From the NCBI RefSeq assembly GCF_013315695.1, contig NZ_CP054356.1: a DNA stretch of 64,000 nucleotides. The stretch is one strand, 5' to 3'. Below, piece by piece: positions 1 through 15,025 of the stretch (its first letter is position 1; each line of letters starts with the position of its first letter). A program made the translations under genes and the position numbers. The notes beneath the pieces are model-generated. The model made no database searches. It was not told the origin of the DNA and worked only from the letters and a program-made list of their open reading frames with translations. Source of the DNA: Escherichia coli. GTDB taxonomy: Bacteria > Pseudomonadota > Gammaproteobacteria > Enterobacterales > Enterobacteriaceae.

Positions 1-2
1 AT

Positions 3-389
3 TATATTGATGATGAAGATTACCGCCGGCGCATTCTGACCCAGCTTAATCGGGGAGAAAGTCGCCATGCCGTTGCCAGAGCCATCTGTCACGGTCAAAA
101 AGGTGAGATAAGAAAACGATATACCGACGGTCAGGAAGATCAACTGGGCACACTGGGGCTGGTCACTAACGCCGTCGTGTTATGGAACACTATTTATATG
201 CAGGCAGCCCTGGATCATCTCCGGGCGCAGGGTGAAACACTGAATGATGAAGATATCGCACGCCTCTCCCCGCTTTGCCACGGACATATCAATATGCTCG
301 GCCATTATTCCTTCACGCTGGCAGAACTGGTGACCAAAGGACATCTGAGACCATTAAAAGAGGCGTCAGAGGCAGAAAACGTTGCTTAA
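3..389 (+). CDS. tnpA: Tn3-family transposase TnpA, C-terminal fragment (5' part lies outside window)
   Basis: Open frame from window edge to stop at 387-389; C-terminal peptide (..LWNTIYMQAALDHLRAQGETLNDEDIARL..) matches recalled Tn3 TnpA C-terminus; followed directly by the Tn3 terminal IR. Confidence 0.8.
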   Translation, partial: YIDDEDYRRRILTQLNRGESRHAVARAICHGQKGEIRKRYTDGQEDQLGTLGLVTNAVVLWNTIYMQAALDHLRAQGETLNDEDIARLSPLCHGHINMLGHYSFTLAELVTKGHLRPLKEASEAENVA

Positions 390-422
390 CGTGAGTTTTC
401 GTTCCACTGAGCGTCAGACCCC
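385..422. mobile_element. Tn3-type 38-bp terminal inverted repeat (tnpA-proximal end of transposon)
   Basis: CTTAACGTGAGTTTTCGTTCCACTGAGCGTCAGACCCC is the reverse complement of the canonical Tn3 IR GGGGTCTGACGCTCAGTGGAACGAAAACTCACGTTAAG. Confidence 0.85.
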
Positions 423-956
423 GTTTTCATTCTAATGGTGTAGTAGTTTCACGTCACGCGCACGTGCATATTCTTCGAAAGCTTCGGCGTTAGCCGGTCA
501 ACCAGGGGTTTGAGGCCCAACCGTACGAGATCGTACGCTAAGTTCATTTTTTGAGCAGAAGAGGTGAGTAAAGAAAACGAGGGTTTTATTTACTCTTCCC
601 GTCAATGCCAGTAGCCATGCGGTTTCAGGGACTTTCAGTGTTAATAAACTCGGTAATCAAATCAACGTAAACCTGCCTAACAACGCCACGACTTTATTGA
701 CTTAAAATCATATAGTTAGCTTCTTAGCGTACGTTTCCGCTCCATTGGGCTTCAAACCCCACACCCAATGACATGAGAAAAGCTGGATCTGATTCTCAAA
801 ATGCTGGGATACCCATCGAGATGGAGAACTCAGTCAATGTTCCATTCTTTCTGAAATATGTGTGGGGACACTGATCTGTCGGGAGCCGGATGCGGTAGTT
901 CCGCAGGTCCGGTTCTGAGGAGGGGCCCGTCCGGGCAACCGGCGGGTCTACTCACC

Positions 957-1520
957 TCATCCCCCTACAACCACTCCCATTCGTTTAAGTATTTTTAAAC
1001 CTGCTTCCTGTGGTATCTTTATAGATAAGATCCTGTTTATCTCAGGATTTATATCGAGACCTTCTGTCATTGAAAAATCACAGTGAGACAAATCAGAATG
1101 TCTGAACTCTGTATTATTAAACTCCGAACCAGTAAAATCAGATTTACGAAGGTCTGTTTCCTCAAATAAACAATCACGGAAGCGACAGGATAAAAAAATA
1201 GATTTCTGTAACCGTAAACTAATAAAATCAACAAATCTCAAATCACAATTTACAAGAGAAAAAGTACAGGGAAACATAATGTCTGCTGCATTTACTCCTT
1301 GTAATAAACAATCTTTGAATTCACAGTCAATAAGTTTAAAAAAATTAAGTTTTAAATTCTTTATTGAGCAGTTTACGAAGCGACATTTTTCGAACTCACA
1401 ATCGCGAAAGTTAAAGTTGTCAAGCTGTATTCGTTCAAATATACAATTGTAATAATTTACACCTGATAATTCACTTTCACTGAGGTGTCGTTTTGTGATT
1501 CTTTTTTCTATTATATCCAT
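957..1520 (-). CDS. mcbG: Microcin B17 immunity protein McbG (pentapeptide-repeat protein)
   Basis: 187 aa, runs of pentapeptide repeats (..CEFEKCRFVNCSIKNLKLNFFKLIDCEFKDC..); last gene of mcbABCDEFG order. Confidence 0.9.
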   Translation of the reverse strand: MDIIEKRITKRHLSESELSGVNYYNCIFERIQLDNFNFRDCEFEKCRFVNCSIKNLKLNFFKLIDCEFKDCLLQGVNAADIMFPCTFSLVNCDLRFVDFISLRLQKSIFLSCRFRDCLFEETDLRKSDFTGSEFNNTEFRHSDLSHCDFSMTEGLDINPEINRILSIKIPQEAGLKILKRMGVVVGG

Positions 1521-1523
1521 GTG

Positions 1524-2255
1524 TCAGTCTCCTGTTCCCATAACTTCTTTAATAAATGCCTTTTCTGGAGTTGTTTCATTATTGGATTGAATAAAATCAC
1601 TCATATCAGAATAACGATTTATACTATTTTTTGAAAGCATATAGAAGGGGATTTTATCTCTTGTTAATTCATCAAAAATATGAGTTGAGAAAAATACCGT
1701 TTTCCCGTCAGCGGTGATCTTATTTATCAGTTCCCATAACATCATTCTGTACTGAATATCAATGCCTACAGTTGGTTCATCCAGTAAAAATAAACGGGCA
1801 TTTTTGCAAAGCGTTAGCATCAAAGATATGATAAGCCAACGCTTCTCTCCATAACTTACCGTGTAAGTCCTTTTACGTCTTATTTTATCATAGCGAATGA
1901 AAAAATTATCATTCCATTTATGATTAAGCTCTGTCCATGCCTGTTTTTTAGTTAACTTATTGAAGCAGCAAATCAAATCAAGAACCTCCTCATTCCTTAG
2001 TGTACCTGAAAGATTTATGACTTGAGGTAGACTTACTAATTCTCCACCAGAGAAATTTCGCTTGAGGGTCCCTTCATAATTACTGACTCCGCCCCTGATA
2101 AGGTTAAAAAGAGTGGTCTTCCCGGCTCCATTTTCTCCAAGCAGACCTATCAACTCTCCCTGCTCAATCTTAAGCGACAGATTATTGAAAACAGGGGGTA
2201 AATTTACTTTATATGAAAAGCTCAGAGAGTTGATTTCTAAAAGAGGTATGGTCAT
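1524..2255 (-). CDS. mcbF: Microcin B17 export/immunity ABC transporter ATP-binding protein McbF
   Basis: Walker A GENGAGKTT, ABC signature-like SGGE, Walker B LFLLDEP; position in operon. Confidence 0.9.
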   Translation of the reverse strand: MTIPLLEINSLSFSYKVNLPPVFNNLSLKIEQGELIGLLGENGAGKTTLFNLIRGGVSNYEGTLKRNFSGGELVSLPQVINLSGTLRNEEVLDLICCFNKLTKKQAWTELNHKWNDNFFIRYDKIRRKRTYTVSYGEKRWLIISLMLTLCKNARLFLLDEPTVGIDIQYRMMLWELINKITADGKTVFFSTHIFDELTRDKIPFYMLSKNSINRYSDMSDFIQSNNETTPEKAFIKEVMGTGD

Positions 2256-2977
2256 TGAGAACTCCAGACTGGCTCAGTTTTGAAGGTTAGTGCTGAAATA
2301 ATACTTATGATTAACATTATACTATAGAAAAATATCGTCATCAGAGACAACTCCTGGTCTGACTGGAGTATTGTAGAATAGATGGCGATAGGATTAACCT
2401 GATTTATCCAGTAAACGATCCCCTCATTATATTTTAATGATACAATTCCTGATACCATACAGACAGTTATTAATACAGAATAGATAGTGCTGGCTGTTTG
2501 GAATGTGACTCTGAACGATGCCATGAAAGTGAGTGAAACCATCATAAATGCATTTATGTATATCGATTTTAAAATAATCATTACTATTTGATAATCTGGA
2601 CTTGCCTGGAATCCTGTTAGTACGACTAAAATGAAAAAAAACACATACAAAATAGACATGATAAGTGAGGCTATTAATTGAGAACGAATAAATAATAGTC
2701 GACCATCCATATTATGCACGAAGGTAGCAATAAAACCACTTTCTCTTCTTCCGACCAGATACAGACAGTAATTAAACAGAACAACAGAAAAAGAAATGTA
2801 GCCTACAAACCATGATATTTGTTTTCCGAGCCATGCTGTATCACCATAATGAAGTTCAATTTCATTGAAATGAAGGAAAAAGAACAACACTGTAGGTGAC
2901 ATAATTGTCCATATTAAGCTGAAAGGGGTTCTGATTTGTTCCATCAGAAAAATTATCGCCATTTTTAATGTAACCAT
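2252..2977 (-). CDS. mcbE: Microcin B17 export/immunity ABC transporter permease McbE
   Basis: 241 aa highly hydrophobic multi-TM protein, translationally coupled to mcbF. Confidence 0.85.
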   Translation of the reverse strand: MVTLKMAIIFLMEQIRTPFSLIWTIMSPTVLFFFLHFNEIELHYGDTAWLGKQISWFVGYISFSVVLFNYCLYLVGRRESGFIATFVHNMDGRLLFIRSQLIASLIMSILYVFFFILVVLTGFQASPDYQIVMIILKSIYINAFMMVSLTFMASFRVTFQTASTIYSVLITVCMVSGIVSLKYNEGIVYWINQVNPIAIYSTILQSDQELSLMTIFFYSIMLIISIISALTFKTEPVWSSQ

Positions 2978-2986
2978 TTGTTATCC

Positions 2987-4177
2987 TTATGGGAATGGTA
3001 CCATCTTTGATTCTCTGACTTTAATACCGTCCCCGGTATGGTAAATTTTATTATTAATGTTTATTGCACCTGAGTTATTCATATGAAGGAAAAAATCAGG
3101 GCTTACTATTTTTGTGTACCAGACAAGGCTGTTACTTACTCTTTCCCTGGCATAGTAAACAAAAATATTATCAGAAATTTGTTGAAGATAGTTTAATAAA
3201 TTTGTGTCTGACGTAATATTTTCCTCAAGCGTTAACTTGACATCATCAGACAGTAGTACCGTATTTTCACACAAATCCGTAAACGACTCGTACTTGTTGC
3301 ATGACATAAAGTGACGCTGGTAACTATCAATAATGTCATCATCAGTATAACCGCCAATAAGAAAGTTGTGCAGGCATATATACGATTGCCACAATTCCAC
3401 TACGGATTTACAAAGTGCTTTTTTCAGACTATTAGCATAGGATAATCCGGTACTGTATTTTATTCGACTGATTTTGTTTTTTGTGCCATACAGGGTTAGT
3501 ACTGCGTGTCCAGGAGCTCCGGGCAGGGTGATATCGAAAATCCTGATATCTCCTTCTGACCTGAGAGCCAGTAAAATCTCATCTATATGATTTATGCCTG
3601 TTACTATTTCACTGGATATTTCAGTATTGGCTTTTCCCTGTAACCAGTAAAGAAGGAGGGACTGTCTCTCCATAAATTCACACAAGGAACCTTCTATGGC
3701 ATCGTTCAAACTACCATGAAAGCTACATCCGCATGTATCTCTGTCAGGATAAAATTTCAGATCATCTGCAGCGGTTATATTGTCGAGTGCAATTATGACT
3801 GCAGGTATTTCTTGTTGTTCAAGGCTAAACAGATTAAAGGCTCTGACCGTTTTAAATTTATGGGTTATGATTTCATCGCGGGTCAGTGATGAGATCTGAA
3901 AAAATGCTTCGGTAAAAGCCTTTGCAGCAGATGGAGGCATCATCTCATATAATGTTTTCTGACCACCGGTGACTATCTCATTAAAAAAATGACGGCGTTC
4001 AAAATATTCACCTATTGCCCCCTGAATTGACTTCAGAGTTTCACCGGCCGCGCTGGCTGGTGTAATACGCTCATAGTCCCATATCTGAGAAAACGTTGGC
4101 ATATTTCTGTTCAGTTTTGGACTCATGGCCATTGTGGCCGGCCATGCGGACATAAGGTTACTGTAGACATTTATCAT
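2987..4177 (-). CDS. mcbD: Microcin B17 synthetase subunit McbD (YcaO-type cyclodehydratase)
   Basis: 396 aa, operon position between mcbC and mcbE; size matches McbD. Confidence 0.85.
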   Translation of the reverse strand: MINVYSNLMSAWPATMAMSPKLNRNMPTFSQIWDYERITPASAAGETLKSIQGAIGEYFERRHFFNEIVTGGQKTLYEMMPPSAAKAFTEAFFQISSLTRDEIITHKFKTVRAFNLFSLEQQEIPAVIIALDNITAADDLKFYPDRDTCGCSFHGSLNDAIEGSLCEFMERQSLLLYWLQGKANTEISSEIVTGINHIDEILLALRSEGDIRIFDITLPGAPGHAVLTLYGTKNKISRIKYSTGLSYANSLKKALCKSVVELWQSYICLHNFLIGGYTDDDIIDSYQRHFMSCNKYESFTDLCENTVLLSDDVKLTLEENITSDTNLLNYLQQISDNIFVYYARERVSNSLVWYTKIVSPDFFLHMNNSGAININNKIYHTGDGIKVRESKMVPFP

Positions 4178-4976
4178 CGTTTACATCTCCAAAAAACTGA
4201 ACGATCAGTGGCGCTACAGTCCTCTGATCCAGATTCATTGTTTTTGCTACGTATGAATCGGTATATCCCGCCCATACCCGGTTTTTCAGTCCTATTTGAT
4301 CTGCAACCAATACTGCGTTCTGATACATCGAACCTGTTTCCATTAAGGCCATCCGGTATCCTCTGTAGCGATATTTGAACAAAGCTTTTTCAAAAATAAT
4401 GCAATAGACGAGAGCAAAATGGGGTTTACCAAGACGTTCCGAATCCCCACCGGACAGGCTTCGGTAGAGTGACTGAGTATTACATGTAGCAACAGGTTCC
4501 AGTGCCTGACTTAGCGGCAGGTAGTGATAAACATTAGTTCCTGCCTGCCAGTTTTCTGTATTTTCAGATAATCTGCATAAAAAAACTTCAATCGGGTACA
4601 ATGCCCCCCCAGAAGGATAAGGTCTTCTTACAGAGCCAGGATCAGGTGAGCTGAATGCATTGACTAATAACTTTTCAATAGTACGAATGGAAAGTTTATT
4701 TTTGTCGCAAAAGTTTATTCCTGATGGGAGCCTTTCACGACTAAAATTATGTGATGAGGATATGTTTATTACGGAGCTGAAACCTGGCCTGAAGAGAACT
4801 TCTTTATTTTCAAATTTCTCCAGATGGGCAAGAGGTACCGCGGACACGAAAGTTCGTTCAGCAAATTCGGGGAGGGAAGCAAAGTTACCTCTGACATGAA
4901 AATCTTTAACAATGGCCAGAACTTCAGGATCTGTGTAATGCGTTACTTCCACTAAAGAGAGTTCGTGTTTTGACAT
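4158..4976 (-). CDS. mcbC: Microcin B17 synthetase subunit McbC (FMN-dependent dehydrogenase)
   Basis: 272 aa, operon position; size matches McbC. Confidence 0.85.
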   Translation of the reverse strand: MSKHELSLVEVTHYTDPEVLAIVKDFHVRGNFASLPEFAERTFVSAVPLAHLEKFENKEVLFRPGFSSVINISSSHNFSRERLPSGINFCDKNKLSIRTIEKLLVNAFSSPDPGSVRRPYPSGGALYPIEVFLCRLSENTENWQAGTNVYHYLPLSQALEPVATCNTQSLYRSLSGGDSERLGKPHFALVYCIIFEKALFKYRYRGYRMALMETGSMYQNAVLVADQIGLKNRVWAGYTDSYVAKTMNLDQRTVAPLIVQFFGDVNDDKCLQ

Positions 4977-4977
4977 G

Positions 4978-5865
4978 TTATCTCTCCAGACAGCTGCAAG
5001 CCTGCCAGTGAATTACCGGCTCTTTACATAAAATACAGGTGATTAAATCAGCGCTAACAGATGACATAAAGTTATCGACATGACTTTTAACCAGTGAAGT
5101 ACCTGTCAACTCCTGAAGTCGCCGTTTTATTAAATGATAGCTGAATCCTCTTTCTGATTCGCCTAAAGCCAATGCTGGTAGTGTCATTTGGTATTTTTTC
5201 AGTAACTGAAGTAAGTTTGCCCAGGACATTTCGTTACGTCTGAAGCTTTTTTCTTCCCTGCTCAGCCATCTCTCTATATGACAAAAATGGCAGGGAGTAC
5301 CAAGATCAGGTGAATATACTCCATCTATCCTGAATGACTCCTTTAGGTAGTAGCTTTGGATGAAGGCAACACCAGGGTTACTTTCAAATTTTGAATAGAT
5401 TCTTTTTACAATGTCTGAATGATAGTTTTCGAGATGTAACCAGATTAGTGTTGAATCGCTCACATTAATATTATTATCTTTTATATCAATGATATGAGAA
5501 ACAAAAACACCATCAGATTTCCATTGTTCCCGGGCATTACTGAAAAGATGTGGAACATCGCTTATTATGACTGAGTTTACCCAGAGAGGTGATGTTTTCG
5601 TTTTATTTATCACGCCTGTGGTAATAAGAAACTCTTTGCCCTTGTCTTTATCAATAAGCGATTCGTCCAGTAGTTTATCAAGGAGGTATTCAGAAATAAT
5701 ACCCTGTTTGGATCGTAGGCTTTCGAGTACTTTTTTCATTCCCTCATGTGTAATGTCTACTGAAGAAATGTAGGTAATAAGCAGGGTCTTTGTATTTCTG
5801 GAAATTATCTCAAACGGCAGAATATTGATCATATCTTTTCCTTTTTTAATATCAGGGAGCACCAT
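4978..5865 (-). CDS. mcbB: Microcin B17 synthetase subunit McbB (zinc-binding scaffold)
   Basis: 295 aa, Cys-rich C-terminus (CHFCH..CILC..C.C), directly downstream of mcbA. Confidence 0.85.
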   Translation of the reverse strand: MVLPDIKKGKDMINILPFEIISRNTKTLLITYISSVDITHEGMKKVLESLRSKQGIISEYLLDKLLDESLIDKDKGKEFLITTGVINKTKTSPLWVNSVIISDVPHLFSNAREQWKSDGVFVSHIIDIKDNNINVSDSTLIWLHLENYHSDIVKRIYSKFESNPGVAFIQSYYLKESFRIDGVYSPDLGTPCHFCHIERWLSREEKSFRRNEMSWANLLQLLKKYQMTLPALALGESERGFSYHLIKRRLQELTGTSLVKSHVDNFMSSVSADLITCILCKEPVIHWQACSCLER

Positions 5866-5891
5866 GCTCCCTGAACGGTTAATTCAACGTA

Positions 5892-6101
5892 TCAGATATG
5901 TGAACCACTTCCGCCGCTGCCACCGTTTCCACCACTACAACCGTTGCTGCAACCACCACAACCGCCACCTTGACCACCGCAGCTACCGCCGCCGCCGCCG
6001 CCGCCACCACCACCAATGCCAACACCTAATGGAGACTGGCGTGATAATTTAAGAGCATCAACGGACAAAACTACACCAAATTCACTCGCTTTTAATTCCA
6101 T
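5892..6101 (-). CDS. mcbA: Microcin B17 precursor peptide McbA
   Basis: 69 aa MELKASEFGVVLSVDALKLSRQSPLGVGIGGGGGGGGGGSCGGQGGGCGGCSNGCSGGNGGSGGSGSHI; matches recalled McbA with leader plus Gly/Ser/Cys core. Confidence 0.97.
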   Translation of the reverse strand: MELKASEFGVVLSVDALKLSRQSPLGVGIGGGGGGGGGGSCGGQGGGCGGCSNGCSGGNGGSGGSGSHI

Positions 6102-6320
6102 AAGGACTCCTTTTTTAAGGGAAATTAATGCTTATGACATCTGAATAGTATGTTGGCCAACACTAGTTACTTGCCGTCATTAACTATATTTTGCAATGAT
6201 AATTTGAACTAAATTTGTACGCCTGTTAAATATTTAATAATAATATCAGTTGGTTATGTTTATGCTGTTATTGTTTTTTTACAAAAATTAATATTGTGTT
6301 TACATTTTGCTTTCAGTTGC
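6102..6320 (-). promoter_or_regulatory. mcbA upstream promoter region (AT-rich; expected site of the OmpR-dependent stationary-phase Pmcb promoter)
   Basis: AT-rich 200 bp directly 5' of mcbA on the minus strand; exact -35/-10 not assigned. Confidence 0.4.
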
Positions 6321-6630
6321 TGTCAGGATGTCACACTACCCCTTTAAGCCCCCACTGGTCTGGCAGGGCCGGGGGTGGGTAAGGTGAAACCTGTCAATCA
6401 GTACCGGCTTACGCCGGTATCATATGCAACAACTGAGTGCCGCCTTCCATATCATATCATTTGCCCGTTTCCCGCCGTGCAGATCCGGTTTCCGGCTGAA
6501 GTGGATCCAGACCTGATTTGTTGCTGAGTATCGGTAAAAGAGCGGCTTATAATCTATTCTGAAACATGGCAAGTGAATCTGGGCTGTATAATTCCGGCAA
6601 GTGTCATCTGTATTTAAAGGTCGTGTGAGT

Positions 6631-7083
6631 ATGAAATTTATGGAATGTGCTGTCCGGGATGTGATTTATGGGACCAATGTCCGTATTGTCAAACCGGTCA
6701 ACATTTATGAATGTGAACTCAGGGACAATGTGTTTGTCGGCCCCTTCGTTGAGATACAGAAAGGCTGTGTCATTGGTAGTGGAAGCCGGATACAGTCGCA
6801 CACGTTTATTTGTGAGAACGTAACACTGGGGGAGAACTGCTTCATTGGTCATAACGTGACGTTCGCCAACGATCTGTTTCGTTCAGGAGCACCAGATCCG
6901 TCACCGGATAACTGGATCAGCATTACCCTGGGGGATTCGGTTACTGTTGGCAGTGGAGCCATTATTCTGTCTCCGTATATATGCAGCGGAGCTGTTATTG
7001 GTGCGGGGGCAGTTGTAGTAAAACCGATTGAGAACAAAGGCATTTATGCAGGAAACCCGGCAAGACTGATCAGAATATTATGA
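6631..7083 (+). CDS. Hexapeptide-repeat (left-handed beta-helix) acyl/acetyltransferase
   Basis: Repeated [LIV]-G-x-x-x-x hexapeptides (IGHNVTF, LGDSVTVGSGAIILS, IGAGAVVV); ORF track starts at alternative GTG 6601, ATG at 6631 more likely. Confidence 0.75.
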   Translation: MKFMECAVRDVIYGTNVRIVKPVNIYECELRDNVFVGPFVEIQKGCVIGSGSRIQSHTFICENVTLGENCFIGHNVTFANDLFRSGAPDPSPDNWISITLGDSVTVGSGAIILSPYICSGAVIGAGAVVVKPIENKGIYAGNPARLIRIL

Positions 7084-7091
7084 AAAAGAAA

Positions 7092-7116
7092 AGGGCCGTT
7101 ACTGGCCCTTTTTATC
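7092..7116 (+). terminator. Rho-independent terminator after acyltransferase gene
   Basis: GGGCCGTTACTGGCCC hairpin followed by T-run just after stop codon. Confidence 0.55.
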
Positions 7117-7485
7117 AGAGGTAGGTCTGTGAATACGGCAGGTGTACAGAAATCGACTGCCGGGGATCGATTTCCAGGGCCGCCCGGTATTCTGCGTCAG
7201 TGATATCACCTTTTTTCAGTAAATAACCGAGAGCATCGTTTCCCAGCCCTGACAGTATGCGTATTCTGGCGATCCGGACTGGCAAATAACCCATCAAAAA
7301 CGTTATTGCCAGACATTGCGAACTCACCAATTTTGATTATTGGAGCCACTTTTTCATAAGTTCCGTGAAATTATTTCATAATAACGACCCTGTTTATTTT
7401 ATGTAATGACTGGCAATAAAATAACTTGATTAAGTTCCCTTTATCCAGCCTGATAGTGGATAAAGGAAACTCAATCATAATTTAA

Positions 7486-7839
7486 TTAGTTTATTAACTT
7501 CATCGCATTCTTTTTTGTCTCCTCATCACTTTTTTGCTCCGATTGTGAAGAGGACTGAATGATTGTTGAAGAATTTAAATCGGCCATCTCTTTTGGAAAT
7601 AGCGATCTCAATATATTCACGATATCTGAAAATGTGGTTTCTTTCGTCAGCAGTTCACATAAAAGGAAAGGGGCCCTGGGATCTTGTCTGTATAAGGCCA
7701 GACCTGCCGTCAGTGCAGCCCGGTTAAGGCGGCTGCGTTCCCCTTGCGGGATACTGTCCAGTGTATCACAAACAATTTTATCTGTTTGATTTACATCTGG
7801 ATTTAGCTTAAAGGCAATGGTTCTGCGCTTGTCCATCAT
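7486..7839 (-). CDS. parR: Plasmid partition adaptor ParR (StbB)
   Basis: 117 aa [47 protein letters not shown].. matches recalled R1/R100 ParR. Confidence 0.92.
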   Translation of the reverse strand: MMDKRRTIAFKLNPDVNQTDKIVCDTLDSIPQGERSRLNRAALTAGLALYRQDPRAPFLLCELLTKETTFSDIVNILRSLFPKEMADLNSSTIIQSSSQSEQKSDEETKKNAMKLIN

Positions 7840-8801
7840 TAATTACCTATGAGATACATACCGTTAACTAAATCATATTGAGAGTTATTGGTTTTAAAAA
7901 AACGTTCATCACGAATCTGTGTGTGTTTTTTTACTGCATCGCATATTAATTCTGCGCCACCACCTATAACCATAACATGAGTATAACCAGAAAATTCATT
8001 GAGTGTATTTAATACACGTTGCTCAAGTTTACGAAGTGCTTCATTCATTGCTTCGGTGACTATTGATATTTTATTCTCATCATTAATTCGTTGCTTCAGA
8101 TAGTTATTATCTTTTCTGTGAATAATTATATCGTCAGCAAGATAGCTACTTCCTTTTGTTCTCGCAAGAGAAAGGGCATCTTTTACTGCAGATGTGACCA
8201 GAGATACACCAAGAGATGAGTCTCCGTATATTTTACTGATTCCCGATAATTTCCCCATTACCTGAGAAATATCTAATGTGGTGCCCCCGAGATCTATAAT
8301 TAATAAAGAATCTAACTCATCCAGTTCTTGTAGAACTTCATAACCTGCCGGTATAGATTCAGGCATGACTTTTACATCTTTTATTGTGAATGTATCCCCA
8401 CCATTTAATGTAATTTTTTTCCGGAAGTTTGCTTTCTTACGCTCAATATTTTCCGTATTGGGTTGGTTATTCCTGTCGTAATACTCTGTCAGAGGAAGTG
8501 TGCAAACAATATCCACTTCGCTTACCGGCAGACCACTGGTCAGTAAGGCGTGGTGCACCGCAACGACATTAACGTCGCTGTATTGCCATGCGATATTGGT
8601 TGTGACTACAGCATCCGGGCTGATTGGATCAAATGAATACTGTTCGCCGTTCAGTGTGTAGTTAAAGACCTTTTTATCACCAAAAGAAACTGCCCACTCG
8701 CGTTTGAAGCTGTTCGGGCTAATGTGCTGTTTAATTGTTCCGTCGCTTTCCTGCCACTGTAGTTTGATGTTTGTTGAACCGTCATCAATGAATACCAACA
8801 T
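7839..8801 (-). CDS. parM: Plasmid partition actin-like ATPase ParM (StbA)
   Basis: 320 aa [25 protein letters not shown].. matches recalled R1 ParM. Confidence 0.95.
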
Positions 8802-8809
8802 TTATAAAA

Positions 8810-8975
8810 CTCCTTATGGTGTTTTTTTTGGTGTTTGTTTGGGTGTGTTTTGGGTTTTAAGTGGGTTTATTTGTCAAGTTTACCCCATTTTAACTATCAA
8901 TCAATGATTATTTGTCTTGTTTTGGTGTTTTATTGGGTTTGGAGTGGGTTGTTTTTGGGTTTTGTTTGGCGGATA
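8810..8975. promoter_or_regulatory. parC: parC centromere/promoter region (iterated ~11-bp repeats)
   Basis: Directly upstream of parM: multiple direct repeats of GGGTGTGTTTT / GGGTTTTAAGT / GGTGTTTTATT type flanking an AT-rich core. Confidence 0.7.
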
Positions 8976-8980
8976 ACAAA

Positions 8981-9290
8981 AGATGTCGCCGGGCTCCTCT
9001 TTTTACTGCGCCGGCTGACGCGGCGCGGCAGGAACGCTGCCTGTGGTCAGTGTCCCGCGTCCGGCCGGGCACGGGACGGGCGCTTTTACCGCTCCCGGCT
9101 GGCGTCGGTGACAGTGTACGCCAGCCCGTCGCCCTTTTCTGATGAGCGCCCTTCAAGCCGCTTTCGCGGCATAGCCTTGCCGTCAAAAAGACGACGGCTG
9201 CGGTATTCCACGGTCGGCCTGACCCGTTACCGGGCGCGGTGAACAGCCCACAGGCAGCGGGGAACGGGCGCCACAGGGGCGCCCTCCCGA
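8981..9290 (+). repeat. Leading-region structured repeat, family A copy 1 (Frpo/ssi-like candidate ssDNA promoter)
   Basis: About 310 bp nearly identical to 10288-10598; GC-rich with nested inverted repeats; sits directly upstream of an operon start. Confidence 0.6.
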
Positions 9291-9312
9291 TGCTCCTGTG
9301 AGGATAATTCCC

Positions 9313-10239
9313 ATGCCAAACTGGTGCTCGAATCGTATGTATTTTTCTGGTGAACCGGCACAGATCGCTGAGATTAAACGACTGGCCAGCGGTGCAGTCA
9401 CACCGTTTTATCGCCGCGCCACAAATGAAGGTATTCAGCTGTTTCTGGCCGGAAGTGCCGGACTTCTGCAGACCACTGAAGATGTGCGGTTTGAACCATG
9501 CCCCGGACTGACGGCTGCCGGACGTGGTGTTTTATCGCCGGAGAATATCACGTTCACCCGCTGGCTGAAGCACCTGCAGGACGGTGTACTGCTGGATGAG
9601 CAAAACTGCCTGATGCTGCATGAACTCTGGCTGCAGAGCGGTACTGGACAGCGTCGCTGGGAAGGGTTACCGGATGATGTCAGGGAAACTATCACTGTGC
9701 ATTTCACCGCAAAAAGAGGTGACTGGTGTGACATCTGGGGTAACGAGGATGTATCGGTGTGGTGGAACCGTCTGTGTGACAACGTACTGCCGGAAAAAAC
9801 CATGCCGTTTGACCTGCTGACGGTTTTGCCGACCCGCCTGGATATTGAAGTGAATGGCTTTAACGGCGGTGTTCTGAACGGTGTTCCTTCTGCATATCAC
9901 TGGTATACAGAACGGTATGGCGTGAAGTGGCCTTGTGGGTATGACCTGAATATCAGCAGTCAGGGGGAAAACTTCATTCAGGTAGATTTCGACACGCCGT
10001 GGTGTCAGCCGGAAAGCGACGTTGTTGCAGAATTAAGCCGCCGTTTCGGCTGCACGCTGGAGCACTGGTACGCCGAACAGGGCTGCAATTTCTGTGGCTG
10101 GCAGTTGTATGAGCGCGGAGAGCTTGTTGATGTGCTGTGGGGGGAACTGGAATGGTCTTCCCCGACAGATGACGATGAGCTGCCGGAAGTCACCGGACCT
10201 GCGTGGATAGTCGACAATGTGGCGCATTATGGCGGATGA
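9313..10239 (+). CDS. Hypothetical Trp/Cys-rich leading-region protein (about 308 aa)
   Basis: ORF with SD AGGA upstream of ATG 9313 (track gives alternative GTG 9298); motifs PNWCSNRMYF, WCDIWGNEDVSVWWNRLCDN, GCNFCGWQL; no family recognised with confidence. Confidence 0.6.
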   Translation: MPNWCSNRMYFSGEPAQIAEIKRLASGAVTPFYRRATNEGIQLFLAGSAGLLQTTEDVRFEPCPGLTAAGRGVLSPENITFTRWLKHLQDGVLLDEQNCLMLHELWLQSGTGQRRWEGLPDDVRETITVHFTAKRGDWCDIWGNEDVSVWWNRLCDNVLPEKTMPFDLLTVLPTRLDIEVNGFNGGVLNGVPSAYHWYTERYGVKWPCGYDLNISSQGENFIQVDFDTPWCQPESDVVAELSRRFGCTLEHWYAEQGCNFCGWQLYERGELVDVLWGELEWSSPTDDDELPEVTGPAWIVDNVAHYGG

Positions 10240-10287
10240 AGTATGACGGAGACGGGCGGGCAACCGCCCGTTTCTTTTCCGGTAAAG

Positions 10288-10598
10288 GATGTCGCCGTGC
10301 TCCTCTTTTTACTGCGCCGGCTGACGCGGCGCGGCATAAACGCTGCCTGTGGTCAGTGTCCCGCGTCCGGTGGGCACGGGACGGGCGCTTTTACCGCTCC
10401 CGGCTGGCGTCGGTGACAGTGTACGCCAGCCTGTCGCCCTTTTCTGATGAACGCCCTTCAAGCCGCTTTCGCGGCATAGCCTTGCCGTCAGAAAGACGAC
10501 GGCTGCGGTATTCCACGGTCGGCCTGACCCGTTACCGGACGCGGTGAACAGCCCACAGGCAGCGGGGAACGGGCACCACAGGGGTGCCCTCCCGGTGC
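10288..10598 (+). repeat. Leading-region structured repeat, family A copy 2 (Frpo/ssi-like)
   Basis: Near-identical to 8981-9290; ends just before RBS of methyltransferase gene. Confidence 0.6.
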
Positions 10599-10622
10599 CC
10601 TCTGTAAGAGAAGGAGTTTTGT

Positions 10623-11306
10623 ATGTCCCGTTTTGTCCTCGGTAACTGCATCGATGTTATGGCCCGTATTCCTGATAACGCCATTGATTTCATACTGACT
10701 GACCCGCCGTACCTCGTCGGTTTCCGTGACCGTTCCGGGCGCACCATTGCCGGTGATGTTAATGATGACTGGCTGCAACCTGCCAGCAATGAGATGTACC
10801 GCGTACTCAAAAAAGACGCGCTGATGGTCAGCTTCTACGGCTGGAACCGTGTCGATCGCTTTATGGCCGCCTGGAAACGCGCCGGATTCAGCGTGGCAGG
10901 GCACCTCGTGTTCACCAAAAACTACACATCCAAATCTGCGTATGTCGCGTACCGTCACGAATGCGCTTACATCCTGGCAAAGGGCAGTCCGGCCCGGCCC
11001 CGTAACCCTCTGCCGGATGTGCTGGGCTGGAAATATTCAGGCAATCGTCATCACCCGACGGAAAAGCCCGTTACCAGCCTGCAACCACTGATTGAGAGCT
11101 TCACACATCCGAACGCGATTGTGCTGGACCCGTTTGCAGGCAGCGGCTCAACCTGCGTCGCTGCCCTCCAGTCCGGACGCCGGTATATCGGTATCGAGCT
11201 GCTTGAACAGTATCACCGTGCCGGACAGCAACGACTGGCCGCCGTGCAACGGGCCATGCAGCAGGGGGCCGCGAATGATAACTGGTTTGAACCGGAGGCT
11301 GCGTAA
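10623..11306 (+). CDS. Orphan DNA methyltransferase (N6-adenine/N4-cytosine type, beta-class)
   Basis: Motif IV TDPPY precedes motif I DPFAGSGST; 227 aa; typical leading-region orphan MTase. Confidence 0.85.
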   Translation: MSRFVLGNCIDVMARIPDNAIDFILTDPPYLVGFRDRSGRTIAGDVNDDWLQPASNEMYRVLKKDALMVSFYGWNRVDRFMAAWKRAGFSVAGHLVFTKNYTSKSAYVAYRHECAYILAKGSPARPRNPLPDVLGWKYSGNRHHPTEKPVTSLQPLIESFTHPNAIVLDPFAGSGSTCVAALQSGRRYIGIELLEQYHRAGQQRLAAVQRAMQQGAANDNWFEPEAA

Positions 11307-11528
11307 ATGAACTATGCCGGACACGAAAAACTTCGCGCCGACGTGGCGGAGGTGGCCAACACCATGTGTGACCTTCGGGCCAGGCTGAACGATATGGAGC
11401 ATCGCTGTCGCTTTGATTCCGATGTGCTTGTTGAACGCCTGACACGCCAGACGCTGTATCGCGCCAATCGCCTGTTCATGGAGGCGTATACCGAAATTCT
11501 GGAACTGGATTCCTGCTTCAAAGATTGA
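11307..11528 (+). CDS. Hypothetical small protein (73 aa)
   Basis: ATG overlaps methyltransferase stop (TAAATG); operon context only. Confidence 0.5.
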   Translation: MNYAGHEKLRADVAEVANTMCDLRARLNDMEHRCRFDSDVLVERLTRQTLYRANRLFMEAYTEILELDSCFKD

Positions 11529-11541
11529 GAAGGAGACGAGA

Positions 11542-11976
11542 ATGTACGGAACATGCGAAACGCTATGCCGGGAGCTGGCAGCAAAGTATTCGGGAGACAC
11601 GCCACTGATGCTGGTTATCTGGTCCCCGGAAGAAATTCAGGCCCTCTCTGACGGAATGGATATTGCCCTGACCGATCATGAAATCAGGACTGTCCTGGCG
11701 CGCCTGGAGGACATCCCGGAAGACCAGCGGACTGAATCCGGTATTTCTTCCGGCGTGGCGATGGAGATCATCAATAACGTGAGCGAAAACCGCCAGGTGA
11801 CTGTCCCTGCTGAACTGCTGGCGTCCCTGATTCAGACCGCTGAACAGGCATTGTGGAAACGTGAATGGGCCGCCCGGGATCATGGCCTCGCCGTCCCGGA
11901 ATGCGTCACCCGCCGTCAGGCGGTGGTTAATCAGGTCCGCATCCTGCTGAAAAACAACACACACGAAAACGACTGA
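11542..11976 (+). CDS. Hypothetical leading-region protein, paralog of 13679-14098 (possibly DUF1380-type)
   Basis: Good RBS GAGAAGGAG; shares MY(G/C)T start and R-x-VTVPA-x-LL motif with ORF 13679. Confidence 0.6.
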   Translation: MYGTCETLCRELAAKYSGDTPLMLVIWSPEEIQALSDGMDIALTDHEIRTVLARLEDIPEDQRTESGISSGVAMEIINNVSENRQVTVPAELLASLIQTAEQALWKREWAARDHGLAVPECVTRRQAVVNQVRILLKNNTHEND

Positions 11977-12020
11977 TGTTATCGCCGCCTCCGGGCGGCG
12001 ATACAGGGAGTTCATGAATT

Positions 12021-13678: not shown

Positions 13679-14098
13679 ATGTACTGTACTGTTAAAGAAA
13701 TTATCCGCGAAGTGCTGGATACAGACGTGCCGGACAGTGAATGCGTTTTTGCCGTGGTGCTGACCCGTGGGGATGTGCGTCACATAGCCCAGGACTGGAG
13801 TCTGACAGACGATGAGCTGGAAACCGTCATGCAGCGGCTGGACGATGCCTTTGAGCATGGTGCTGATGTCAGCATTGTTCACGACGTTGTTCGTGAACTG
13901 ATGGAGGAAAAGCGCGTAAACCGTCTTGTAACAGTCCCTGCGGTGCTGCTGGAAAAAGTGATGGTGATGGCTGGTAGTGAAATTTATCGCCTCCATGCTG
14001 TAGGGAGCGAGAACGGGGGCGACGGTGACGCATTTGTCAGGGAAGAACGTGAGATTATGCGGGTGATGCGTCAGGCGCTGGACGGGGAGAATGGGTAA
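13679..14098 (+). CDS. Hypothetical leading-region protein, paralog of 11542-11976
   Basis: RBS AAAGGAGA; shared motifs with ORF 11542 (VTVPAVLLEKV). Confidence 0.6.
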   Translation: MYCTVKEIIREVLDTDVPDSECVFAVVLTRGDVRHIAQDWSLTDDELETVMQRLDDAFEHGADVSIVHDVVRELMEEKRVNRLVTVPAVLLEKVMVMAGSEIYRLHAVGSENGGDGDAFVREEREIMRVMRQALDGENG

Positions 14099-14490: not shown

Positions 14491-15025
14491 TTATGCCTTT
14501 TCCGGGCGTCCCCCTGGCGGGGCGGGCTGTCGTGAACGGAGCCAGCGGAGCTGTCTCCGCCCTGGCGGGCTTCCATCCCTGACGCAAAACCCCGGGTTTG
14601 CAGCGACCGGAACGGTCGCGCCACCCCTGTCGCGCCGTGGCCTGCGCTCCCGGCATCCCGGCAAAAAGACGCCGGGATGTAAGGAGCAACGCCGTTTCGC
14701 AAACCGCGCTTCACGTCGTTGCAGCGGGTCCCTGCTCATTGCCTGCCGGGTGCCACACACCCGTATGAGTCCCTGTCGCCGGGGGCATAGACAGCCACAA
14801 CCTGCCGCACTGACTGTCCAGGGTAAATGAACAGCCCACAAAATTTTTTACCTAAAACCCGGTAAAAAATTTTGCGTTCTGCCCAGGACAGGTGCGTCAG
14901 GCCGTGGCAGTGATGCCCCTTGCGGCGAAGGTTCTCAAACGGGTGAAGTTCATACCACAGGGAATACAGCAGCAGGTTCCCGCGAAACGTCAAAACCGCG
15001 GCTCCCGAAACTCAACGGGTGATGT
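14491..15025 (+). repeat. Leading-region structured repeat, family B copy 1 (Frpo/ssi-like candidate ssDNA promoter)
   Basis: About 530 bp repeated at 17774-18300 and 23191-23740; contains perfect 14-bp inverted repeat CAAAATTTTTTACC/GGTAAAAAATTTTG (about 14839-14874). Confidence 0.6.

Follow-up and report, generated by a model that had tools for sequence, protein, structure and literature searches.

An acyltransferase gene beside mcbA on a microcin B17 plasmid as a probable passenger from an amino-sugar gene cluster

The open reading frame (ORF) lying next to mcbA in the analysed window (64,000 nucleotides of Escherichia coli contig NZ_CP054356.1, assembly GCF_013315695.1) encodes, with a probability of roughly 80%, an intact acetyl-CoA-dependent beta-helix N-acetyltransferase that came as a passenger from an amino-sugar cluster and has no role in the biosynthesis, export or immunity of microcin B17 (MccB17). 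Its native setting would be a six-gene accessory cluster, composed of a five-gene operon and the acyltransferase, which is encoded on the other strand and converges on the last gene of that operon. In an ancestor resembling the plasmid pSCU-111-2, the mcb module would have been located about 2.9 kb from the amino-sugar cluster. A deletion on one side would then have removed yacAB and three small genes, and another on the other side nearly the whole operon, leaving over an 828-bp fragment with the acyltransferase. We infer the order and the mechanism of both deletions from present-day plasmids.

The acyltransferase coding sequence occupies positions 6631-7083 on the plus strand (453 nt, 150 amino acids plus stop) and presents the hexapeptide repeats of a left-handed beta-helix. 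The open frame spans 6601-7083 from a GTG codon that the homologues do not use, and the ATG at 6631 is the start common to all of them and to the RefSeq annotation, in which an identical CDS of 453 nt is recorded (WP_000670962, 'acyltransferase'). The length of 150 aa was kept in 26 orthologues, and the Pfam model Hexapep (PF00132) matched the protein over three stretches (E-value of 1.5e-15, 56.5 bits vs. a cutoff of 27). Moreover, the dN/dS values against the orthologues ranged from 0.04 to 0.15, indicating purifying selection and therefore a conserved gene, no chance ORF, while the substitutions within E. coli (2-7 synonymous vs. 2-4 nonsynonymous) were too few to show selection. Overall, the ORF is real and intact and, judging by its sequence, a sugar-type acetyltransferase. 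The initial annotation of a left-handed beta-helix acyltransferase placed back-to-back with mcbA was borne out, the two start codons being separated by 529 bp on opposite strands, and the end given there (7116) takes in a terminator hairpin downstream of the gene. The neighbour mcbA (5892-6101, minus strand), which translates into the canonical microcin B17 precursor of 69 aa and which identical plasmids annotate as 'microcin B17 family TOMM', is outside the acyltransferase fragment.

The spacer between both genes is made up of three pieces unrelated to one another and is not a single shared promoter region. The piece next to mcbA (6102-6355, minus strand, 31% GC) contains the gearbox promoter mcbAp, whose elements TTGCAA (6196-6191) and CGGCAAGTA (6176-6168) are found on the minus strand, 435-463 bp away from the acyltransferase ATG; the gearbox consensus and the membership of mcbAp in this group have been described (PMC5650638). 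Upstream of mcbA, the diverged mcb loci (L005-L007) share DNA with the window only to about position 6200 (limit 6198-6205). The central piece (6356-6450, 57% GC), with 75-93% identity to more than 5,000 IncF plasmid records, is what remains of a backbone segment common in IncF plasmids, which in other plasmids appears just upstream of yacAB or pemIK and downstream of the replicon, and which is homologous to positions 2466-2581 and 14597-14640 of locus L001, upstream of yacA. The third piece (6451-6630, plus strand, 46% GC) is the acyltransferase's own upstream region, accompanying the gene in other E. coli contexts, and its homology with four of these loci (L001, L002, L003 and L095) starts at 6450/6451 or about 25 bp earlier. 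The spacer had been described with the right length (about 500 bp), while its AT-rich character holds only for the mcbA-proximal piece.

A consensus promoter scan of the 180 bp upstream of the acyltransferase gave no full sigma-70 promoter. Two perfect TATAAT hexamers were present (6548-6553 and 6587-6592), with no good -35 element, and the ribosome-binding site was weak. On plasmids of the pMccB17 type the gene is probably still expressed from a weak promoter of its own, without its cognate pathway. In the plasmid pS88, the transcript of the copy pS88110 was quantifiable, and serum, urine and iron limitation had no effect on it (PMC3438092); this copy is 97.8% identical to the gene in the window and has the same upstream DNA. 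Furthermore, no known RNA element was found in the spacer with an Rfam scan of positions 5800-7900 at permissive E-values, and two hits (a plant miRNA and a ctRNA) were rejected as chance matches, both being far below the gathering scores. No upstream element common to all was found when the upstream regions from nine genera were aligned, and one motif was common only to a subset formed by Brenneria, Erwinia amylovora and Edwardsiella ictaluri.

The 828-bp fragment (6451-7278) comprises the acyltransferase, its upstream region of 180 bp, the terminator and 164 bp of a flavin-containing monooxygenase (FMO) gene, with a deletion joint at each end. The terminator (7089-7112), found by a terminator scan and by reading the sequence directly, is a GC-rich hairpin with a 9-pair stem (5 G-C pairs) flanked by an A-run and a T-run, and it likely terminates transcription in both directions, the acyltransferase and monooxygenase genes converging on it. 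The FMO stub (7115-7278, minus strand), identified by BLASTP and blastn, retains the last 53 codons plus stop, all 53 residues matching exactly those at 458-510 in the FMO of L002 (510 aa). In particular, positions 6450-7278 of the window were 98.3% identical to positions 3981-4810 of L002, which span the acyltransferase/FMO junction of a complete cluster (98.2% against L095; blastn), and the 164 bp of the FMO stub were 100% identical in the mcb plasmids. An ORF at 7115-7330, with a weak SHOCT match (E-value of 0.019), was rejected as a gene, being the FMO stub running into backbone DNA. Hence, of the six-gene cluster the window retains only the acyltransferase and this stub, and the whole system is not present.

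Both junction sequences are clean breakpoints. At the left joint (6450-6451), which reads ...gccttccat|atcatatcatttgcc, the IncF backbone segment is fused to the upstream region of the acyltransferase. The left side is shared with pSCU-111-2 and pbAPEC5202, which then diverge, and the right side is shared with the island of pSCU-111-2. Position 6450 was also considered as the end of a mobile element, which was rejected, as a chromosomal copy reaches 25 bp further left and terminal repeats are not evident. At the right joint (7278-7279), which reads ...gcgatccgga|ctggcaaataaccc, the interior of the FMO gene is fused to the DNA downstream of stbB (parR). The FMO gene of L095 continues differently from this point, and the backbone of pEG356 (L096), whose homology begins at about 7269, reads gcgctccggg|ctggaaaacaaccc, so that the parental sequences have a short microhomology in common (tccgg).

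Two readings of the gene had been offered by the initial annotation, namely an unrelated passenger, or a role in tailoring or self-protection that ties it to the microcin island. An enzyme that tailors MccB17/McbA or protects its producer, co-regulated with mcbA through the shared intergenic region, would be consistent with the divergent position of the gene adjoining mcbA and with its presence in most E. coli-type mcb plasmids, the same junction appearing in 79 PLSDB records out of about 105 with an mcb locus at least 99% identical. However, when the other mcb plasmids were checked, the gene was absent beside the mcb operons with about 80% divergence of Klebsiella pKPN-3967, Edwardsiella pEtSC002-2 and E. 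coli pSA31IncF, which share with the window only positions 973 to about 6200, as well as from pbAPEC5202, whose mcb locus is 99.6% identical and where the 99% homology ends exactly at 6450 and is followed by CPBP-pemIK. Moreover, most copies of the acyltransferase occur without mcb: its DNA was found in 423 out of 5,426 complete E. coli genomes, including 90 chromosomal places, while mcb was found in 109, and McbB, McbC and McbD appeared in none of the 80 species-level loci of the acyltransferase family. The presence in most pMccB17-type plasmids is best read from the sequences as descent from one plasmid lineage with the same two joints, with no functional link.

The functional boundaries of the mcb module argue in the same direction. 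In positions 1-12000 of the window there is only one EcoRI site (1317) and one BamHI site (6503), 5,186 bp apart, so that the classical 5.1-kb BamHI-EcoRI fragment, reported to be sufficient for MccB17 production and immunity (PMC6722960), maps to 1317-6503 and stops 123 bp before the acyltransferase ATG. Judging by the literature and the restriction-site mapping, the acyltransferase is therefore not required for microcin production or immunity. Furthermore, synthesis, export and immunity are accounted for by mcbABCDEFG, an acetyl modification goes unmentioned in the review of MccB17 ('acetyl' appearing 0 times, PMC6722960), mcbAp is more than 430 bp away and beyond two recombination joints, and both fold and sequence resemble sugar N-acetyltransferases, unlike peptide-modifying enzymes. 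A literature search for 'microcin B17' together with 'acyltransferase' found nothing relevant. The proposed link to the microcin island is consequently unsupported; already largely refuted, it is scarcely credible. The derivation of the fragment from an amino-sugar cluster and its absence from the diverged mcb loci and pbAPEC5202 strongly support the passenger reading. Absence from other mcb loci together with membership of a housekeeping family, which the initial annotation had named as the pattern that would speak against a link, is essentially what was found, the diverged loci having no such gene and the 150-aa family being widespread in chromosomes of Enterobacterales and Vibrionaceae.

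The undeleted state is observed in pSCU-111-2, in the order mcbA, backbone, yacAB, DUF6404, two hypothetical genes, acyltransferase and the full convergent operon. This operon encodes an NtdA/KabA-like aminotransferase, a HAD-IIB phosphatase, a Gfo/Idh/MocA dehydrogenase, a SemiSWEET and the flavin monooxygenase, a gene content that identifies it as a putative kanosamine-type pathway. The best PDB matches of the aminotransferase were 7kz3 (1.6e-90) and NtdA (4e-88), the next family being at 6e-50; 7kz3, listed in the PDB table under a generic aminotransferase name only, is taken here to be KabA of B. cereus. The dehydrogenase resembles C3-specific sugar dehydrogenases, and the SemiSWEET is the crystallised EcSemiSWEET. 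The cluster occurs on ColIa, ColV and ColBM plasmids and in some genomes of Erwinia, Pantoea and Pectobacterium, and the operon was complete in 66 and present as a remnant in about 546 out of 5,426 complete E. coli genomes. The acyltransferase is convergent with the FMO end of the operon in E. coli plasmids, Pantoea ananatis, Pectobacterium brasiliense, Cedecea and Erwinia amylovora, an arrangement kept across five genera with protein identities of 72-94%. A literature search for 'kanosamine' with SemiSWEET found no papers, and searches for kanosamine with Pantoea, monooxygenase or acetyltransferase found nothing relevant.

By sequence and predicted fold, the acyltransferase is closest to the 3-amino-sugar N-acetyltransferases WlbB, FdtD and QdtC. 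A first structure model from a shallow alignment (26 sequences) was discarded (pLDDT of 67.5) and replaced after a deeper search by an AlphaFold (AF2) model based on 90 sequences (pLDDT of 96.6, pTM of 0.90), in which the short-strand pattern of a left-handed beta-helix is predicted. The top Foldseek matches of this model were all beta-helix proteins with a probability of 1.00, the best being WlbB (TM-score of 0.86, rmsd of 1.7 A), while FdtD had TM-scores of 0.80-0.82. The best domain-wide PDB sequence matches were FdtD (4mzu), QdtC (3fs8), the 3-amino-sugar N-acetyltransferase of H. pullorum (7s43) and WlbB (3mqg), with identities of 23-29% to characterised enzymes (23-27% to FdtD and QdtC). 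In the profile search one LpxD chain scored nominally higher, over a stretch of only 49 residues; LpxD, GlmU, DapH and gamma-carbonic-anhydrase-like proteins otherwise matched partially or less specifically. No NCBIfam model reached its cutoff with the protein or its 90 homologues, the best being NeuD/PglB/VioB (59.8 bits vs. 160.8), and the names LpxD, DapH, GlmU, NeuD, CysE, WbbJ, Vat (27.4 bits vs. a cutoff of 300) and CatB (26.4 vs. 350) were rejected for scores far below the cutoffs. A gamma-carbonic-anhydrase or YrdA-like reading, present among the fold matches, was rejected for its weaker sequence matches compared to the acetyltransferases. Residues H74, N80 and D81 of the FxND region showed no or almost no variation in 90 diverse homologues, and the invariant set H57, H74, N80 and D81 is presumably unlike the three-histidine metal site of gamma-carbonic anhydrases, which also spoke against that reading.

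The enzyme would form a trimer and use acetyl-CoA to acetylate kanosamine (3-amino-3-deoxy-glucose), or a derivative made by the operon, on its C3 amino group, a kanosamine-type amino sugar being, from the genomic context alone, the most likely substrate. Against this assignment, the characterised relatives use nucleotide-linked sugars, whereas sugar phosphates and free kanosamine are what the NtdABC/KabABC route acts on. Moreover, the substrate of the family may be more general or different, because about 70 of the 80 species-level loci carry the acyltransferase without the operon.

Three functions beyond the microcin system were weighed for the enzyme. The published pMccB17 sequence already annotates the gene as 'fdtC' (PMC10912980), which would make it a dTDP-3-amino-3,6-dideoxy-galactose 3-N-acetyltransferase for O-antigen or glycan synthesis. 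This name was automatically derived with Prokka. Among the closest solved relatives are FdtD and QdtC, whose substrates are dTDP-3-amino-3,6-dideoxy sugars. At the identities given above and with no equivalog model reached, 'fdtC' is best taken as a family-level resemblance and not as an orthology call. In addition, neither a glucose-1-phosphate thymidylyltransferase nor a 4,6-dehydratase, an FdtA-type isomerase or a glycosyltransferase was identifiable adjoining the gene in the contexts examined, and the conserved partner is a sugar-phosphate pathway of the NtdA/KabA type, which leaves the annotated function very improbable. Unlikely too is a general detoxifying or housekeeping acetyltransferase that acts on a common metabolite or xenobiotic, like the maltose and galactoside acetyltransferases, with the operon link being secondary. 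The many solo loci, in varied chromosomal settings, argue for such a role, as does a group with a fixed position near malFG, psiE and yjbH-like genes in about 12 genera. Nevertheless, the identity of this group is only 58-61%, and its members may represent a different orthologue, while the plasmid gene is 98% identical to the copies in intact clusters and the convergent arrangement is conserved between genera.

Tentatively, the acyltransferase might instead confer self-protection within an enterobacterial cluster that makes an amino-sugar antibiotic and includes the operon to which the crystallised E. coli SemiSWEET natively belongs, and it would persist as an orphan on pMccB17-type plasmids and in many chromosomes. 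It would inactivate the amino-sugar product through N-acetylation and be kept as a protection against the compound released by competitors with ColV, ColBM or ColIa plasmids; kanosamine is a known antibiotic. Consistent with this, the gene is convergent with the biosynthetic operon and transcribed separately from it in every intact cluster, it was found in far more E. coli genomes than the complete operon (423 vs. 66), and it has remained intact in places where the operon is degraded or lost, namely in pS88-type plasmids, a chromosomal tRNA-Phe island, the mcb plasmids and Edwardsiella ictaluri, which has its own FMO stub. Solo copies of Brenneria, Photobacterium and Cedecea were 84-93% identical to the plasmid gene, vs. 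72% for the clustered copy of Pantoea, with dN/dS values of 0.08-0.10. Furthermore, the gene came through both deletions in the window together with its upstream DNA and its terminator. On the other hand, the monooxygenase implies a product other than plain kanosamine, the last step of the biosynthesis could just as well be catalysed by this enzyme, and the retention could be due to chance in a young lineage, because the substitutions within E. coli are so few. A resistance role is accordingly possible but rather doubtful.

In the window, the acyltransferase is an ordinary passenger. For work on microcins, this places 'fdtC', the neighbour of mcbA in the prototype plasmid, outside the MccB17 system, so that it can be ignored or removed when the operon is engineered, the functional mcb module ending about 100 bp upstream of mcbA. 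Moreover, the origin of the gene points to a putative kanosamine-like operon, frequent on virulence and colicin plasmids of E. coli, that appears in plant pathogens such as Erwinia amylovora and that would give a physiological context for EcSemiSWEET. If the gene confers resistance, its many solo copies would represent orphan resistance to a small-molecule bacterial weapon, and pMccB17 would carry a weapon (MccB17) together with a shield against a different one.

Among known systems, the best fold match is WlbB of Bordetella petrii (3MQG/3MQH; sequence E-value of 1e-10), a UDP-2-acetamido-3-amino-2,3-dideoxy-glucuronate 3-N-acetyltransferase. Both enzymes are small, single-domain left-handed beta-helices, and the acetylation of a sugar C3 amino group with acetyl-CoA, as carried out by WlbB, is predicted for the acyltransferase. 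However, WlbB is longer (about 190 vs. 150 aa), acts on a UDP-linked sugar and is encoded alongside WlbA and WlbC in an LPS locus, while NDP-sugar genes (nucleotidyltransferase, dehydratase or isomerase) were not identifiable beside the acyltransferase in any inspected context. The best full-length match is the N-terminal domain of FdtD (4MZU), where the profile aligned residues 9-146 with residues 9-146 (E-value of 1e-12), and a FIG-x-NVTF-x-ND stretch is common to FdtD, QdtC and the acyltransferase; FdtD, QdtC and FdtC (4MZU, 3FS8 and 7S43) nevertheless act on dTDP-sugars in O-antigen or S-layer glycan clusters, and no rml or fdt genes are near the acyltransferase. With Vat, CatB and other xenobiotic acetyltransferases it shares the superfamily, without being a member of those families (about 26-29 bits vs. 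cutoffs of 300-450). The parent operon has the same three enzyme types as NtdABC and KabABC of Bacillus (aminotransferase, Gfo/Idh/MocA dehydrogenase and HAD phosphatase). To our knowledge, those operons include no SemiSWEET, flavin monooxygenase or beta-helix acetyltransferase, whereas the enterobacterial cluster has all of them, and its end product is therefore probably a modified kanosamine. Finally, the proposed orphan resistance role of the acyltransferase would have its parallel in the orphan immunity genes of colicins and other bacteriocins, which are likewise small, separately transcribed genes that outlast the genes of the producer.

The open reading frame at 6601-7083 (plus strand) was read from the ATG at 6631, the start common to all homologues and to RefSeq, giving a protein of 150 amino acids. 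It was considered a real gene because its product matched Pfam Hexapep well over the gathering score (E = 1.5e−15), its family kept a constant length of 150 amino acids (mean column identity of 80% over 26 orthologues), and dN/dS values of 0.04-0.15 indicated purifying selection. As the initial annotation had proposed, it stands back to back with mcbA (5892-6101), with the start codons 529 bp apart, while mcbB (4978-5865), mcbC (4158-4976) and mcbD (2987-4177) appear in the ORF list on the same minus strand. The spacer, described there as AT-rich, was so only in the 250 bp proximal to mcbA (31% GC), the remainder having 46-57% GC. The window comes from an IncF plasmid of the pMccB17 type. Positions 5880-7500 matched at 99.9% identity in dozens of E. 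coli plasmids, among them the prototype pMccB17 (ON989342), in whose sequence paper the gene was listed by automatic annotation, without discussion, as 'fdtC (encoding an acetyltransferase)' (PMC10912980). The gene is already annotated in a published plasmid; its product is an uncharacterised enzyme of a known kind. Transcript of the 97.8% identical copy in pS88 (pS88110, 'putative acetyltransferase') could be quantified by qRT-PCR, and its level was unchanged by serum, urine or iron limitation (PMC3438092). On the window plasmid the gene is probably still expressed from its own promoter. Separately, two GC-rich stretches of the leading region (8835-9242 and 10203-10547) constitute a direct DNA repeat, since their ORF peptides are nearly the same (…RRAPLFTAPADAAR…CLWSVSRV…); the pMccB17 paper mentions direct repeats of 149 bp, to which these may correspond.

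Three boundaries were found by blastn of the window against related loci. Positions 6356-6450 were a diverged copy of a segment present in >5,000 IncF plasmids, where it lies downstream of the replicon and immediately precedes yacAB or pemIK. The following stretch (6450-7278) showed 98.3% identity to part of NZ_JBUXMJ010000002, which carries a complete six-gene cluster, and contained the acyltransferase with ~180 bp of preceding DNA, together with the 3′ terminus of a flavin-containing monooxygenase (FMO) gene convergent with it. In particular, the mechanical ORF at 7115-7330 (minus) included the last 53 codons of the FMO gene (53/53 identical), forming a stub at 7115-7278, and from ~7269 on the sequence was the common backbone downstream of stbB/parR. 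Both joints were clean breakpoints, the left one (6450/6451) reading ...gccttccat/atcatatcatttgcc and the right one (7278/7279) ...gcgatccgga/ctggcaaataaccc, with a tccgg microhomology between both parental sequences.

An undeleted relative was found in pSCU-111-2 (NZ_CP051729.1), whose mcb operon was 97.6% identical to that of the window. There, mcbA was followed by the same backbone piece, yacAB, a DUF6404 gene, two small hypothetical genes, the acyltransferase and the complete convergent operon (FMO, SemiSWEET, Gfo/Idh/MocA, HAD-IIB and DegT-family aminotransferase genes), and then by genes for an integrase and for colicins M and B. Two deletions in a plasmid of this kind would yield the window arrangement. 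The gene for the beta-helix acyltransferase is thus shown to be intact and to sit on what deletions have left of another accessory cluster; we set the probability of this remnant origin at about 0.9. Furthermore, pbAPEC5202, with an mcb operon 99.6% identical, kept its 99% match to the window as far as position 6450 exactly; beyond it came CPBP-pemIK, with no acyltransferase. As an observation on the joint itself, 6450/6451 is a recurrent recombination point in IncF plasmids, the backbone segment leading into yacAB in pSCU-111-2 and pS88, into CPBP-pemIK in pbAPEC5202 and, in the window, into the acyltransferase fragment.

The initial annotation suggested a comparison with other mcb plasmids. 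The window-type junction was found in 79 of the ~105 PLSDB records with mcb at ≥99% identity, while the acyltransferase was absent from pbAPEC5202 and from three diverged mcb loci (~80% DNA identity) in large Klebsiella pneumoniae plasmids (pKPN-3967), Edwardsiella tarda pEtSC002-2 and E. coli pSA31IncF. Given those 79 records and the other arrangements in pSCU-111-2 and pbAPEC5202, the regular co-occurrence of mcb and the acyltransferase can be put down to the success of a single plasmid lineage. By blastn, alignment of the diverged operons with the window was confined to positions 973 to ~6200, a limit 100 bp 5′ of the mcbA start codon, and the DNA beyond it differed in each of them. The limit falls just beyond the gearbox promoter mcbAp (minus strand; TTGCAA at 6196-6191 and CGGCAAGTA at 6176-6168), for which the consensus and the membership of the gearbox class are published (PMC5650638). 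The portable mcb module thus delimited against these three loci measures ~5.2 kb and ends ~100 bp upstream of mcbA. Window positions 1-319 showed ~77% identity to a Tn3-family transposase pseudogene adjoining the mcb operon of pSA31IncF (13697-14015 of that locus), possibly a vestige of the module's movement. Outside the DNA common to the diverged loci, ~200 bp upstream of mcbA, the sequence TTTACATTTTG was found at 6299-6309 (plus), which may resemble half of an OmpR-binding box of the kind in the ompC and ompF promoters.

On the functional side, a 5.1-kb BamHI-EcoRI fragment is reported to hold MccB17 production and immunity, with precursor, synthetase, export and immunity all accounted for by mcbABCDEFG (PMC6722960). 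Within window positions 1-12000, EcoRI and BamHI each cut only once, at 1317 and 6503 respectively, and from the spacing of these sites (5,186 bp) we infer that this is the classical fragment; it stops 123 bp before the acyltransferase ATG. The EcoRI site lies inside mcbG (about 957-1520, minus), so that the 1317-6503 fragment would carry a truncated mcbG. The literature and the site mapping together show that the DNA which suffices for making MccB17, and for immunity to it, does not include the acyltransferase, and outside one lineage it is not co-inherited with mcb. The gene is almost certainly unrelated to MccB17. Of the two readings in the initial annotation, that of an unrelated passenger was borne out, as a fragment from a different cluster, and that of microcin tailoring or self-protection was refuted by the criterion set there, which joins absence from other mcb loci with membership of a housekeeping family.

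The distribution across genomes was analysed in 5,426 complete E. coli genomes, 423 of which had acyltransferase DNA (360 plasmid and 90 chromosomal places), while 109 had mcb. The complete parent operon was present in 66, including pAPEC-O1-ColBM, with remnants in ~546. In pS88-type ColV plasmids the acyltransferase adjoins colicin Ia and the operon is decayed, and a tRNA-Phe island on the chromosome is another setting of the gene. When one genome per species was scanned, 373 stretches encoded relatives; among the best 80 of these, none had McbB, McbC or McbD, four had the parent operon and ~70 had the acyltransferase alone. The six-gene arrangement with convergent acyltransferase was conserved in Cedecea and, among plant-associated Enterobacterales, in Pantoea ananatis (L009, 8001-13348), Pectobacterium brasiliense (L016) and the Erwinia amylovora chromosome (L097, 4664-10014); in E. 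amylovora it lies in a core chromosomal neighbourhood, with rpiA/LysR on one side and fbaA-pgk-epd-tkt genes on the other. Edwardsiella ictaluri ATCC 33202 (L018, 1374-2158) had a solo acyltransferase (86% protein identity) followed by its own FMO-gene stub, an independent case of operon lost and acyltransferase kept. In addition, a branch with 58-61% identity held a fixed chromosomal position in ~12 genera (L060, L064, L067, L076, L078 and related loci), which, judged by the translated neighbours, is beside yjbH-like genes and 3′ of both a PsiE-like gene and a transporter pair of malF/malG type; it is possibly a distinct housekeeping orthologue.

The most interesting remaining reading is that of a putative orphan resistance function, which we regard as unlikely, substitutions within E. 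coli being too few for a selection test. It draws on several observations: in all intact clusters the acyltransferase has a transcription unit of its own, it outlives independent operon decay in pS88-type plasmids, the chromosomal island, mcb plasmids and E. ictaluri, and solo copies of other genera, which evolve under purifying selection, resemble the plasmid gene more closely than do some of the copies within clusters.

Regarding the enzyme class, the best full-length matches to solved structures were all N-acetyltransferases for the C3 amino group of sugars, namely FdtD (4MZU; profile E = 1e−12, aligned at 9-146 in both proteins), QdtC (3FS8), the Helicobacter pullorum dTDP-3-amino-sugar N-acetyltransferase (7S43) and WlbB (3MQG). 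An LpxD chain (4e75) had a nominally lower E-value (2.6e−13), but over profile positions 30-78 only. An initial AlphaFold model, built on a shallow alignment, had low confidence (pLDDT 67.5); with relatives gathered by exhaustive profile search and 90 sequences realigned, the second reached 96.6, and Foldseek against the PDB placed this predicted model nearest to WlbB (TM 0.86, rmsd 1.7 Å), followed by FdtD (TM 0.80-0.82). The FIGHNVTFANDLF stretch, whose H74, N80 and D81 were invariant or nearly so in 90 homologues, aligns with FIGPNVTFTND of FdtD and 7S43. No NCBIfam model scored at its cutoff; the subfamily is unnamed, and 'FdtC' is unjustified as an orthology call. There is about an even chance that the protein is a trimer carrying out acetyl-CoA-dependent N-acetylation of a kanosamine-type amino sugar.

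The five-gene parent operon was found on E. coli ColIa, ColV and ColBM plasmids (4647-9503 in NZ_JBUXMJ010000002; 4084-8940 in pSCU-111-2), and no paper describing it was found in the literature. This kanosamine-type operon, and the EcSemiSWEET trail with it, lies beyond the window except for the 164-bp stub. Its SemiSWEET (6176-6445 in NZ_JBUXMJ010000002, minus) is the crystallised EcSemiSWEET (4X5M/4X5N; E = 3e−52), for which its authors considered sucrose probably not the physiological substrate (PMC4309421). Judged by the surrounding operon, a kanosamine-type amino sugar is the candidate substrate instead. The aminotransferase matched 7KZ3 (1.6e−90) and B. subtilis NtdA (4K2B; 4e−88), with the next family at 6e−50; 7KZ3, named in the PDB table only as a generic PLP-dependent aminotransferase, is B. 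cereus KabA. The dehydrogenase resembles C3-specific sugar dehydrogenases and the phosphatase is HAD-IIB. By sequence, an N-acetyltransferase akin to those of 3-amino sugars would fit a pathway making 3-amino-3-deoxy-glucose, where it may serve either product finishing or producer protection. The NtdABC/KabABC route to kanosamine is made up of the same three types of enzyme (aminotransferase, dehydrogenase and HAD phosphatase), and the five-gene operon looks like a putative kanosamine pathway with an extra oxygenation step.
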